A DNA stretch of 64,000 bases, from positions 12,400,001-12,464,000 of the forward strand of contig CM022670.1 in assembly GCA_012295275.1 (NCBI GenBank), in the 5' to 3' direction. The translations under genes were made by a program, and so were the position numbers. This stretch comes from Chrysomallon squamiferum (Eukaryota > Animalia > Mollusca). The notes beneath the pieces are model-generated. The model saw only the letters and a program-made list of their open reading frames with translations, made no database searches and was not told the origin of the DNA. Below are positions 30,701-36,700 of this stretch, piece after piece. Position 1 is the first letter of the stretch. The number at the start of each line of letters is the position of its first letter.

Positions 30701-33700
30701 CTTTAATTTTGTATCATATCATCATCATCATCATCATCATTATTATATAATTTAATTATTCATTGCCTCAAGATTTATTTATTTATTTATTTACGTTTTG
30801 CAGGTGGGAACATGGTCGAAATCAGAAGGTATCATTACAAATATGACGAGACCAGAAAAAGCCAAACCTAAATCATTTAACAGAACCAGAATTGTAACCA
30901 CAATCTTGGTAAAATAATATATGTTTTGACACATTTTTAATTTTTAATGTTTAATTTATTTTAATTTTTAATTTTTTATATTTTAATTTTTTAATTTTAT
31001 TTATTTATTTTTAATTTTTTTATATTTTTATTTTTTAATTTTATATATTTATTTTTATTTTTTTTAATTTTTCATAGTTTTATTTTTTTATTTTGTTTAT
31101 TTATTTTTATTTTTTGTTGTTGTTGTTGTTGTCTAGCAAAAAATGTACAGAACCATATCATTAAGAAGAGATAGGGAAGCCAGAACTGATCAAAAGAAAG
31201 ATACTTACATGAAGATCTATCAGCAATACAAACATACATAAAACTGTGCTACTAAATTTTTGTGATATAGCAGTTCCATAATTCTTTGCATACCTTTAAA
31301 TATATTTTTTCTCTAATGCTATATTGTTTACTTTTTTTACATTTTATTTATTTATTTATTTTAATTAATTGATTTTGTAACAGGAAAGTCCATTCACCAT
31401 GGACCACTGTTCAAAAGACGGTTCACCGTGTACAGGTAATCTGCGTTTTGAAGGATTCTGTGTGGACCTGGCTCGCATGGTGTCTGAAGTTGTAGGCTAT
31501 GATTATGTGTTGAGGCTGGTAAAAGATGGACACTATGGTGGAAGACAGAAGGACGGTTCATGGAACGGAATGATTGGTGAACTGATGAATGAAGTAAGTT
31601 GTTTCTTCAGTACTTATTAAATAATTTCTGTAATAAAACAAATGTTAGGTTGTTTTGTTTGTTTGTTCTTTGATTTGCCACTAGATAGATTCCTTTACTG
31701 TTAGTCTGGATAAAGAATTTAGGAAAGACATTTAAAATTTTCTCTTTTTTTGTATTTTTAAAAATTCTTATGATGTTCTAAAAGAAATGATACAATATAA
31801 TATTGTGTATTCTCCATTTAAGTTCAAACATTTATAATTTTAACCCGATTAAAGTTTCCAGAGAAAATTAACTGCAACAAACCCTGGCTGAGCTATTGAA
31901 TACATAGTAATAAATCATTAGCAAATCAGAAAGATGTCCTGTCAAAATAATCTTTTGAGTATGTTTAATTTTTTTAAATATAGCATTAATTAAAATATGT
32001 CAGTTTTCAAAGATGTTTTCACAAAATTGAAGGTAAATATGAATAATATTATAAATAAAGTTAGCTCACTGTTTTAGTTGCAAATATCCTCTTTTGACTG
32101 CAATAAATGATGATACAAACAAGAAAATTATGAAGCAAGAATTACCATGGGATCTTACATTTAAGAAAATTGATTTATTCAAGGAGGCAGACATAGCCAT
32201 TGCACCACTGTCTATAATACAGATGCGTGAGAGAGTGGTCGACTTTTCCAAACCTTTCATGGAATCAGGCATCAGCATCATGATCCGCAAACCAGAGAAG
32301 CAGAAACCTGGCGTCTTCAGCTTCATGGCTCCCTTCTCCAACACTGTCTGGATGTGCATCACCATCGGCTTCCTTGCTGTCAGCACCATCCTCTTCCTTG
32401 TTGGCAGATTCAGTCCGTTTGAGTGGAACATCAACGAGACGGGTGCCGAGGCTCAGAACTCATTCAACATGCGGAACACTCTCTGGTTCACCCTCGGGGC
32501 GCTAATGCAGCAAGGTTCTGATATATCCCCAAGGTTGGTCCCAAGACTGGACTGAAATATTTGTCCAAGTTAGTTTCTTTGAAAACTACATGCATCAAGA
32601 ATCTGCATTTTGTTTGATGTAGCATGAAGTTGCATGATGTTATGACTACGTACATGTATGTATTATTTATGTGAAGGTTTAAATCTTCTTCTTTGTCTTT
32701 AGCATTTTCTTTTGCAGTTCATTTGCAGTTATTTGCATGTTGTTTGTATTTTTAAAAATTATTTTTAACATAATGAAATTGCTATCCAGAACAAATAAAT
32801 AAATAAATAAATATTTATGTGATAAAAAATTCAAGACTGAGACCTGAGTAGTATTTTCCATATTTTTTCATTTTTAAAACTTTTAGATGTATAAATGTAA
32901 TGAATATAGATTTCTTGTTTTGTGCTACTAAAAAAAAAAAAAATATATAAAGTAAATAAAAAAAAAAAAAAAAAAAATAAATAAATGAAAAAAAAAAATA
33001 AATAAATAATGTGAATGACATTTAAAGCTTCAACCAAGAAAAGAACAGGTTGTGTTGACAAAGTGCAGCAGTGACAACAGGAGGTTTAATTATAGAGTTG
33101 TATTTAAAAAACTGGCTTGAATTTCAGAGCTATTTAAGGCAGAGATTGTGAACTTAATGTGCATGAAACATGATTTTTGGACATCTCAAGTATAAAATTG
33201 GTTTGGTTTCTTGACCTTACAGTTTCTATTTACATGGCACTCTTTGGCAGTTATTAAGAAAGTGTAGAGAAATGATGGCCGGATATTGCAATTTTGAATG
33301 CATACCTTTCCCAAACTGTCTTAAGATATTAAATGAAACATTAGCAGAAATCATTACTGGATTTCATGATTTCTAATACTGCCTTCACAAATATGTCTTG
33401 AATCAAGAGATGATGCCTGGGTATCAAACTCTGAAATACTTCCCTTCATATGTTCTTAGTTAAAATAGACATTATTTTTATTTTTGAACAATGATATATA
33501 AATGAAATAATTGTTTAATAGATTACTTTTATCATTTATGATAACCAGATCAGATTGATAATAAATAAAATGTTAACTGATATAAACTAGCAATTGTTTA
33601 TTTGAACAATAATTGTTATTTTTTTTGTAAATGGTAATAATATTAACATATCAAATAACATAGTAAAATTTTTGTTCCAATTTTTATTTAGAATAACTTG

Positions 33701-36700
33701 TTTCCTGAATATCTTAATTTATTGAACAAATCTGCATGAGATTTCTTTTTCTTTTATCTTTTCTTTTAACTTCTTTCATTCATGCATGGTTTCTTATTTT
33801 TAATATTTGAGAATGATATTTTTATTCCTTGTCTTGTTTTTTTATTATTATTATTTTTTTAATTCTTATGCATCTGTATTACTAATAAGGAAAGATTAAA
33901 ATCATTATTTTGAACAACGAGCCAAACGCTGAGCTTTCCTTCCTATTAGAATGCATGTAAACGATCCTGTTTAATCACAAAACTTTTTAATTACACAAGA
34001 ATAGCTGTGATTTGCACCAAATCACTTCTATCATTCAGAAGCAATGAGGAATCATTAGTATTTTCATCATCACATCACAGCATAGTCTTTCTTCATTTTC
34101 ATCTTTCTCACCATCATCATCATCACAATCATCATCATCATCATCATTTTCTTTATTCTACATAATCATGCACACTGATATGGCATCATTCTGTATTCAT
34201 GTATAAACATCAGTGTACCATGTTTACCACATGCAAGTAGTTTTCATTACTAAATAATGTTAGAAGCTTGTGATTGCTATTCGAAATCATTTTCGATTAA
34301 CACTGGGGCAACATCAGAATCTGGTCGCATTACGGCCCCATTTATATTGACAGGTAGTTTTATACTTGGTTCAGGTGTGCAATACATGTAAGTATGTTAT
34401 GCTTGGCTTCTGTGTTGACTGTAAGCAGGTAAGTATAATTTTATTTACATCTTCTTTCCTTTTCAATTTTTTAAAATTCTTTACCAGTTTTGTGCATCAT
34501 GGGTTTTACATTCTAAACTGGCATTTGAAATATGGTAATTGAGAATTTTAGAATGCATTTATTAAGCATGTAGAATATTTACATAATTAGTGCTGCTGCT
34601 TGAAAGTTTATGAAAGTTTATGCTTATTATTACTGTTTTTATTACTATTGCTATTTTTATTATATTGCATTTTCAAAAGTAGTGTGTTTGGTTATGTGTC
34701 TGTGTGTGGCTGTGTGTTTGTGACTCAAAGAGTGAGTGTGAGAGAGAAAGTGAGAGAGAGTGAGTCAGTGTGTGTGTATGTGTTAGTGCAGTGCTTTTAA
34801 ACTATTTTGATGTCATTCAGTATTGATTAATTATTACCTCAGACTAAATTACAGTATTTTTGGTCATTTTTTATCTTTTGCATATACAATTTTTTCTCTC
34901 ATAGGTGCAAAAAAGAAAAGCAAAATAAACAACAAGAACAACAAAAATTAACATTTATGAATTTTAATGCCGTTTTTAATTTTAAAGAAGCATTTAAGAA
35001 GCACTGTGTATCTGTTTATAGATAGGTGAAAAAAGAACTATTATTAAATATATACTTGTACTTCCACTTGTGTAGAGTCCCATATTTTAAAATAAAATAA
35101 CAAAGAATAAAAGAATGAAAAAGATTTCCATTGATACAATGCAAATTTTACCATTATTCTTAATGATAAAGAAAGCTACAGTAAGAACTTTTAAATAGCA
35201 ATATAGCTGAACATATTTATGCCATCACGGTGCTCAATTAGATGTTTTTAGATCCATGTCAGGCCGGATAGTTGGCAGTGCTTGGTGGTTCTTCACGTTA
35301 ATCCTTATATCCTCCTACACTGCAAACCTGGCTGCGTTCCTCACAATCGAGAGACTTGTGGTACCAATTGATTCAGCAGACGACTTACTAAGACATCCTG
35401 AAATCAGATATGGGACTTTGGAAAATGGTTCAACTTATGAATTTTTCAAGGTCTGTTTGTTTTTAACTATTTTAAATGGTAAAATTTTAATATTTTCATC
35501 ATTGTTTCTTCTTTTTTTATAATTTTGGCATTCATTTTTTTTTTTTTTTTTTTTTTTTTTTCGACAACATTTTGAAAGGTAATTAATTAATATATGGACT
35601 CTATTTTGGATAAATCTTTTGTTAATCTGATTCTCTCAAAACATATTATTTGATAGAAATATGATTTTGAGAACTGATTTTAATGATTTTATTAATATTT
35701 TTTGTTTCTATTGTTGTTTGCAATATTCAGATGTTTCTAAAGAAATTTTTCATGAAATATTGAAATGATTCCAGTTAGAAGCCTACCAACAAATTTTATC
35801 ATTTTAGTTAAAATCATTTCTTCAAATATATATATAGATATATATAATTCTAAAATACAGTTCCACAAAATAATCTTATAATTCTGAATATGATTTTTGC
35901 TTTCCTTTTACAACATAATCATCTATCTGCCTTCTGAAGAATTCTGAAGTGTCAGTTTACTCAAAGATGTGGAATGTCATGATAGATGCAGTACCTTCAG
36001 TTTTCACAGCGAGTGTTAAAGAGGGCATCTTGCGAGTTCAGAACTCTAAAGGAAAATATGCATATTTCCTTGATTCTCCCATGAATGAGTATCAAAATCA
36101 GCGTCAACCATGCAACACAATGAAAGCTGGAAGAAATCTCGATTCTAAAGGTTATGGGATTGCCACTCCAATGGGATCAGATTTAAGGTTAATATGAAGA
36201 AAACATTTAAATATTTAGTTTTGCAGTTAAAACAGAATGCAGGAGATATGACTAATATGGATTTAATGATACAAAAGGATGTTAATTAATAAGATTTGTT
36301 TTGAAAATAAATTAAGGTAATATTCAGATAATCAAATATAGGTTGACTGTAGTTCATACAGAGAGGCTGAAGGAATAATTAGTTTTCAAGCAAAAGCCAA
36401 CCTAGTGTAGGCCTGAATGTACATTTTCTAATTGATCTAGGCATTGGCAAAGGTTCATGACTACATAAGTATGGTAGAAAGTATATAAAACAGCACAAAT
36501 TGTCAAATTTATAAAGGAAATTAAATTATAATAATAAAAATATTTTACAGAGTTCCTATCAACATAGCTGTCTTAGAATTGAGGGAAATTGGAGAACTAC
36601 ACAGACTCAAACAAAAGTGGTGGTATGACAAGGGCCAGTGTGGTTCAGAAAATTCCAAGGTAGATAACTCACCCAACTTCCTGTTTCCAGTTTGAAGAAT

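Follow-up and report, generated by a model that had tools for sequence, protein, structure and literature searches.

Within a 64,000-nucleotide stretch of the Chrysomallon squamiferum genome (GenBank assembly GCA_012295275.1, contig CM022670.1, positions 12,400,001 to 12,464,000 of the forward strand; hereafter the window, to which all positions below refer) lies a gene for an AMPA-class ionotropic glutamate receptor, and the end of its pore-loop exon is predicted to pair with a complementary segment far inside the following intron. The duplex spans the codon of the Q/R site, and its intronic arm is probably an editing-complementary sequence that gives Q/R recoding by ADAR; the fold is a computed prediction, and the action of ADAR and the recoding itself are inferred.

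The exon-intron duplex over the Q/R codon

The adenosine in question, A32509, is the middle base of the codon CAG in the motif LMQQGSD, whose column in the alignment equals that of M[Q/R]QG in vertebrate GluA2. An earlier note on this DNA, made from the sequence alone, had proposed a pairing without gaps between 32496-32540 and 34295-34339 (stem 1), and recomputation returned exactly this duplex, with 32 Watson-Crick and 4 G·U pairs among its 45 positions. The note also held that A32509 lies opposite C34326, that the middle adenosine of the next Gln codon (A32512) faces G34323 and that the complement is richer in G+C than the intron around it, all of which was borne out by the recomputed values (53% vs 28% G+C in the last case). 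The distance from A32509 to its opposite base in the complement is 1817 nt.

The ungapped pairing score of 58 is well above what shuffled sequences provide, the maximum being 42 in 1000 dinucleotide shuffles of the intron and 41 in 1000 shuffles of the exon arm. Similarly, none of 500 shuffles reached a duplex energy as low as that of stem 1 (-50.2 kcal/mol), and across the whole + strand the best partner of the exon end is this very complement (-52.8, as against -41.1 for the next site). The note had further suggested a fold of the region against shuffled controls, and when 32400-34450 was folded as a whole, 35 of the 36 pairs of stem 1 were formed with probabilities of 0.73-1.0. The predicted fold thus contains an imperfect duplex of at least 20 pairs laid over the Q/R site by a downstream intronic complement. 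In all, 441 exon windows of 45 nt were tested in the gene, and the 433 others reached no more than 42 vs 58 here; a duplex of this kind is found at one exon end of the gene only, centred on the pore codon, and this was counted in favour of editing.

The immediate surroundings of A32509, with a C opposite, a C on its 5' side and a G on its 3' side, provide a favourable context for ADAR. It has been reported that a C opposite the target induces editing, that A·A or A·G oppositions lower it and that a G on the 5' side is disfavoured (PMC10713624).

Some further observations concern the complement and its neighbourhood. The segment just 3' of it, 34347-34436, contains a CAG acceptor-like site ending at 34353 and GTAAGT donors at 34388 and 34429; spliced to the pore exon it would give an immediate stop codon, and it may represent a poison exon or a chance arrangement. 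No match was found in Rfam for 31500-35500 at E-values up to 1. A nested antisense receptor exon was considered and rejected, as the reverse strand is pore-loop-like for 15 codons only and the similarity ends there. Of 11 listed sequencing runs 9 contain the stretch, with no RNA run named among them, and the two organism-B runs gave no contig on 34150-34435, neither of which speaks for or against editing. The sequencing run X3 showed 2 differences from the window in 286 nt (34150-34435), both outside the stems (34184 and 34228) and too few to carry meaning, and a guess that runs X8 and X9 were RNA found no support, the X8 contig sitting inside the intron.

A predicted second stem behind an unpaired linker

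Although stem 1 stands as the earlier note described it, the structure is larger than was claimed there, since a second stem is predicted behind an unpaired linker. In the fold of the whole region, 15 of the 16 positions of stem 2 are paired, with probabilities of 0.77-1.0, and no local shuffle was found to be as good (0 of 2000 and 0 of 500). The linker comprises 39 nt on the 5' side and 48 nt on the 3' side, and its two sides pair no better than shuffles (238 of 500 and 436 of 500). Stem 2 is a candidate for an editing-inducer stem; such stems are located 45 nt (GluA2), 48/32 nt (GluK2) and 70 nt (GluK1) from the edited site, and flanking stems are needed for efficient editing (PMC5654063). 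A possible third stem, 32600-32640 with 34185-34228, was dropped, as 27 of 500 shuffles were as good.

A duplex of this kind may also be left behind by a neutral event, in which a piece of about 100 nt across the exon-intron boundary was duplicated in inverted orientation long ago and has been decaying since, the A·C opposition having arisen by chance. The two stems are nearly collinear (coordinate sums of 66835 and 66826), as one inversion would give, the sense duplex is barely more stable than the antisense one (-50.2 vs -45.7), and since 3 of the 10 adenosines lie opposite C, the chance of finding A32509 in this position is about 0.3. However, the pairing of both stems across a linker that does not pair is not what an evenly decaying copy would show: similarity is absent in the linker though present in both of its flanks, and stem 1 runs for 45 nt without a gap at a Watson-Crick match of 71%. 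Such an origin would also not account for the conservation of the 5' arm, nor for the occurrence at this codon, in other lineages, of like duplexes whose arms are conserved (both described below), and we regard it as very improbable.

As a separate observation, TGCAT and TGCATG words cluster at the far end of stem 2 (32591-32640) and also at the intron starts of two of the invertebrate loci discussed below (L002 and L022); TGCATG is presumably an Rbfox-type motif.

Conservation of the intron start in another snail-like species

Two open reading frames (ORFs), P0121 and P0241, which both read through from exons into introns, were taken to belong to one gene of a third snail-like species, as the contigs of both are 657,813 bases long. 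Compared with the window they have 7 changes in 117 exon residues and 8 in 82, where the gastropod Gigantopelta aegis has 4 and 7, and they are also distinct from the G. aegis sequence. For orientation, the two peltospirids sequenced in PMC7736800 diverged about 66 million years ago.

The alignment of the P0121 tail to 32535-32596 covers 22 residues, is interrupted by three short gaps and scores 24 against a null maximum of 6; without anchoring the score was 22 against a null maximum of 10. The first 62 intron bases are thus kept, covering the splice donor, the linker hairpin and the 5' arm of stem 2. Beyond 32596 the conservation in P0121 falls to the null level, and three other intron ends of the same species scored at the null level as well (8 vs a mean of 7.7, 6 vs 6.0 and 4 vs 4.5).

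Comparable duplexes in other invertebrate loci

This exon was confirmed at 299 loci in a scan of metagenome contigs; the best 80 were examined, and 75 of them contained enough intron for a gapped pairing score. The codon at the Q/R site is CAG in 25 of the best 80 loci, CAA in 5 and an arginine codon in 50 (CGG in 2 of them). As a side observation, the arginine loci mostly use CGT or CGC, and some encode Arg at the following codon too. A gapped duplex over the exon end was detected in 4 of 24 CAG loci (L001, L002, L004 and L022), with z-scores of 4.0-5.7 and none of 60 shuffles as good in each case, but in none of the 46 genomic-Arg loci and none of the 5 CAA loci. With complete introns only, the comparison becomes 4 of 9 CAG loci vs 0 of 25. 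The Fisher p-value for this contrast (0.003) overstates it, given the non-independence of the loci and the post hoc choice of score.

With the ungapped score, applied to 70 of the 80 loci, the maximum was 39 vs 58 in the window, and a statement that no such duplex occurs elsewhere, based on that score, had to be dropped as bulged duplexes had been missed. By raw energy, loci L075 (-55.5) and L067 (-50.6) rival the window (-52.2); their targets have about 60% G+C, and neither is significant against shuffles.

L001 is nearest to bivalve proteins (77%), and L002, L004 and L022 to annelid proteins (76-82%). In L001 the site is at position 392 and the complement at 1703-1750, about 1.3 kb downstream (z 5.2, 0 of 60 shuffles), with the Q/R adenosine opposite C; in the three annelid-like loci it is opposite U. 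In all five genes, the snail one included, the G that follows the Q/R adenosine faces U or G and never C.

The three annelid-like loci enable a closer view. L002 and L022 are near-orthologues, sharing 305 of 326 exon bases, and L004 has 255 and 263 of the 326 in common with them (78-81%). The introns of L004 and of L002/L022 have in common the arms only, namely an invariant block of 25 nt near the intron start, which is present in L003 too, and a block of 110 nt located 0.7-2.1 kb downstream. The latter contains the complement of the exon (L002 5798-5844, L022 8472-8518, L004 1144-1194) together with an invariant partner of the 25-nt block, which gives, behind a loop, a second stem longer than that of the snail. 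Among these three sequences one pair, four bases 3' of the site (+4), is altered on both sides from A-U to G-C. In the paired part of the exon L004 and L002/L022 agree at 10 of 11 codons; outside it they agree at 39 of 79 (p 0.01) and 48 of 79 (p 0.09). The annelid-like elements are candidates for Q/R editing substrates in their own right, and the element is probably not confined to this snail. A search for intron sequence common to the snail and L001-L022 gave a single 22-nt match outside the arms, which was set aside.

The distribution of these duplexes also bears on a possible role in splicing, in which the fold would have been selected to mask the 5' splice site and to tune intron removal or the use of cryptic sites, without any meaningful recoding. 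Stem 1 does cover the donor (7 pairs, intron +1 to +7), as do the stems of L002, L004 and L022, two consensus donors and an AG follow just 3' of the complement, and the conservation of the intron start is compatible with such a role. Nevertheless, it leaves unexplained why the duplex is located at this single exon end of the gene, why it is absent in 46 of 46 genomic-Arg loci and why it runs on past the Q/R adenosine for 13 nt upstream; in L001, moreover, the best-supported pairs are exonic and the donor pairs elsewhere. Selection for splicing thus seems unlikely as an explanation.

Two further observations were made during the scan. Assemblies with Arg paralogues also have CAG paralogues without a duplex (e.g. 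L024, L025 and L051), which would fit a loss of editing after genomic fixation of Arg. In addition, L010, L013, L015, L018, L074 and L003 have very strong inverted repeats inside the intron near its start (scores of 88-204), unrelated to the exon, which are probably inverted copies of mobile elements.

The receptor gene and its surroundings

The coordinates of the gene and of the predicted elements are given in Table 1. The exon translations show the layout N-terminal domain (NTD)-S1-M1-M2-M3-S2-M4 with the motif SYTANLAAF, nearest to GluA1-4. The top database match of the pore exon is the G. aegis protein P0001 (97%, the runner-up being at 71%), and over 15 exons 751 of 853 aligned residues of the gene are identical to it (88%). 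The best 60 matches of P0001 in the Protein Data Bank (PDB) are GluA1-4 or entries labelled only as glutamate receptor, with no GluK among them. In a tree of 52 AMPA-like proteins, built by a quick method without bootstrap and without a kainate outgroup and with P0055 omitted, P0001 groups with gastropod genes of Haliotis, Lottia and Lymnaea (SH-aLRT 95). The earlier note had remarked that its proposal would be of special interest if the animal were not a coleoid cephalopod, and both the 88% identity to the G. aegis protein and the gastropod grouping of P0001 agree that it is not. It had also proposed a comparison with two further paralogues, B and C, which has no object here, as tblastn shows one pore (M2) exon in the window.

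Table 1. Features of the receptor gene and of the predicted duplex (window coordinates)
Feature	Position	Strand	Basis or remark
AMPA-class ionotropic glutamate receptor gene	14761..38570	+	tblastn and exon translation; 16 coding exons seen, first exon not located
M1-M2 (pore loop) exon	32184..32533	+	translation; AG/GT ends
Stem 1, 5' arm	32496..32540	+	last 38 exon bases and 7 intron bases, spanning the 5' splice site
Q/R-site adenosine (CAG)	32509	+	25th base counted from the exon end; opposite C34326
Phase-2 intron after the pore exon, containing both 3' arms	32534..35250	+	
Intron start conserved in a third snail-like species	32535..32596	+	tail of ORF P0121
Predicted local hairpin in the linker between the stems	32545..32571	+	core pairs probability 0.99; -7.9 kcal/mol
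Stem 2, 5' arm (candidate editing-inducer stem)	32580..32595	+	begins 71 nt from A32509
Stem 2, 3' arm	34231..34246	+	
Stem 1, 3' arm (candidate editing-complementary sequence)	34295..34339	+	

The window also contains the beginning of another receptor gene and a candidate for that of a further one. A neighbouring glutamate receptor paralogue begins on the + strand at 51969-52081, a signal-peptide-like exon recognised by eye, and 58692-58850, an N-terminal-domain exon (tblastn E-value of 3e-7), its pore exon lying beyond the window. By eye, a divergently transcribed paralogue was seen on the - strand, with signal-peptide-like and N-terminal-domain-like exons at approximately 236-392 and 2240-2330, for which tblastn gave no matches at an E-value of 0.01.

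Proposed mechanism and its weighing

We propose the following course of events. The pre-mRNA is predicted to fold back such that the intronic complement clamps the exon end together with the splice donor, and stem 2 would help to recruit ADAR. The enzyme would then deaminate A32509 before the intron is removed, the inosine would be read as G and CAG would thereby become CGG (Arg), while masking of the 5' splice site would delay splicing. Some transcripts would encode Arg in place of Gln, and by analogy with GluA2 the resulting subunits would have low calcium permeability. In vertebrate GluA2, Arg at the Q/R site is known to lower calcium entry (PMC3167634, PMC3391646), and both ADAR1 and ADAR2 are present in molluscs and annelids (PMC3167634).

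Several points weigh against this interpretation. Pairing directly 3' of A32509 is weak, consisting of a G·U pair, a C-G pair and then an A·G mismatch. Stem 2 is not significant against the whole intron when a wide gapped query is used (4 of 60 shuffles as good), and it has 15 pairs vs 25-54 in published inducer stems (PMC5654063). The conservation of the 5' arm comes from one species and from translated tails, with short controls (21, 16 and 8 residues). Among the CAG loci, 20 of 24 are without a duplex (5 of 9 with complete introns), the gapped score was chosen after three positive loci had already been seen, and the 75 loci are not independent, as there are near-duplicates and most Arg loci seem to form one clade. 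Further, two more exon adenosines lie opposite C, namely A32523 (Ile to Val) and A32532 (Arg to Gly). The latter is position -2 of the splice site; its editing would also alter the donor, in a geometry resembling the vertebrate R/G site.

These additional A·C oppositions raise the question of whether the duplex is an ADAR substrate whose main target is another adenosine (A32523, A32532 or intronic ones), Q/R recoding being a minor outcome. In its favour, there are three exon adenosines opposite C, and adenosines of the exon are mismatched more often than its other bases (5 of 10 vs 4 of 35, p 0.017). A32523 and A32532, however, lie in larger internal loops without a 3' G or a clean flanking helix, and absence of the duplex in genomic-Arg genes is predicted by a Q/R target alone, on account of which we consider a different main target quite unlikely. 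Even with the above objections, editing of the Q/R codon remains in our view the probable function of the element.

The literature contributes objections of its own. Aplysia has been stated to be an animal that "does not exhibit extensive recoding" (PMC8382921). An editome of 22 species lists Q/R recoding of glutamate receptors in zebrafish and human only (PMC9989829; in Table S5, part 85 and the first 32 of 46 places for "glutamate receptor"). Within that portion of the table there is no glutamate-receptor row for Aplysia or oyster, though both were whole-body samples, and the octopus rows are without a pore Q>R change; besides these octopus sites, the invertebrate entries comprise a single S>G change in lancelet. 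Excerpts of PMC12226733, PMC6307864, PMC6532900, PMC10642201, PMC9303212 and PMC9479739 make no mention of Q/R editing in invertebrates. The open-licence literature of PubMed Central and bioRxiv gave no account of editing at this site, or of such a duplex, in molluscs or annelids, while subscription papers or cephalopod site tables could hold one. In the literature searched, known Q/R editing is restricted to vertebrates, and the invertebrate duplexes are new here.

The earlier note had concluded that this gene possesses an independently evolved Q/R editing system. The editing-complementary part of that claim gains some indirect support from the predicted two-stem anatomy, the kept 5' arm and the restriction of duplexes to CAG loci, whereas independence is not established, because comparable elements occur in bivalve-like and annelid-like AMPA genes. 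The trait may be wider in Lophotrochozoa, and for its origin both shared ancestry and repeated origin are possible.

Evolutionary meaning

Editing of the GluA2 Q/R site is the sole recoding event that is essential in mammals. It has been described as having first evolved in fish (PMC3167634). If the interpretation given here is true, the snail substrate together with the bivalve-like and annelid-like structures would shift the origin of Q/R editing or multiply it. It would also mean that animals without editing on the scale of cephalopods set calcium entry by one precise recoding site, and it would provide natural gene pairs ("edited" vs "genomic Arg") beyond the vertebrates for asking why the site is edited rather than hard-wired. 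A more general proposal, to which we give about even chances, is that Q/R editing of AMPA-type receptors through a distant intronic complement did not begin with the vertebrates but takes place in bivalves, annelids and gastropods alike, that it descends from an early gene of lophotrochozoans (perhaps of bilaterians) or else was built repeatedly, and that it was dropped where a paralogue fixed genomic Arg.

Comparison with known systems

Genomic-Arg AMPA paralogues of annelids and teleosts have the same predicted outcome, an Arg in the pore, but there it is fixed in the DNA and no duplex accompanies it (0 of 46 scored loci). Arg at the Q/R site occurs in none of 43 named mollusc proteins, which are mostly genome-derived models and as such cannot show editing. 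Recoding of channels in coleoids and Drosophila resembles the present case in that exon-intron pairing directs ADAR to the transcript of a neural channel in a protostome, which for the snail is our reading of the predicted fold; the difference is that little recoding has been reported for gastropods, to which the snail belongs.

With vertebrate GluA2 the element shares the AMPA class, the CAG codon and a 25-nt distance from the adenosine to the 5' splice site (PMC3391646), as well as a stem that takes in the splice donor (PMC3553965). A paralogue with genomic Arg is present in teleosts, as one is in some annelids. The complement of GluA2 lies about 0.3 kb into the intron (PMC3553965), vs 1.8 kb in the snail. 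AMPA genes of molluscs have expanded separately from those of vertebrates (PMC5225553, PMC6307864), and because of this separate expansion and because GluA2 postdates the protostome split there is no one-to-one orthology with GluA2 (PMC5225553).

In its anatomy the element comes close to that of the kainate receptor genes GluK2 and GluK1. The pore codon is the same, the complement is located 1885 nt downstream in GluK2 vs 1817 nt here, and a separate flanking stem follows behind an internal loop, 70 nt from the site in GluK1 and, as a candidate, 71 nt from it here (PMC5654063). The snail gene differs in being of the AMPA class and of a protostome, stem 2 has 15 pairs vs 25-42, and editing has been shown for the kainate genes whereas it is deduced for the snail. 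The element resembles the vertebrate Q/R editing-complementary sequences in its target codon, in the downstream complement and in the context of the site, and is a candidate member of their class.

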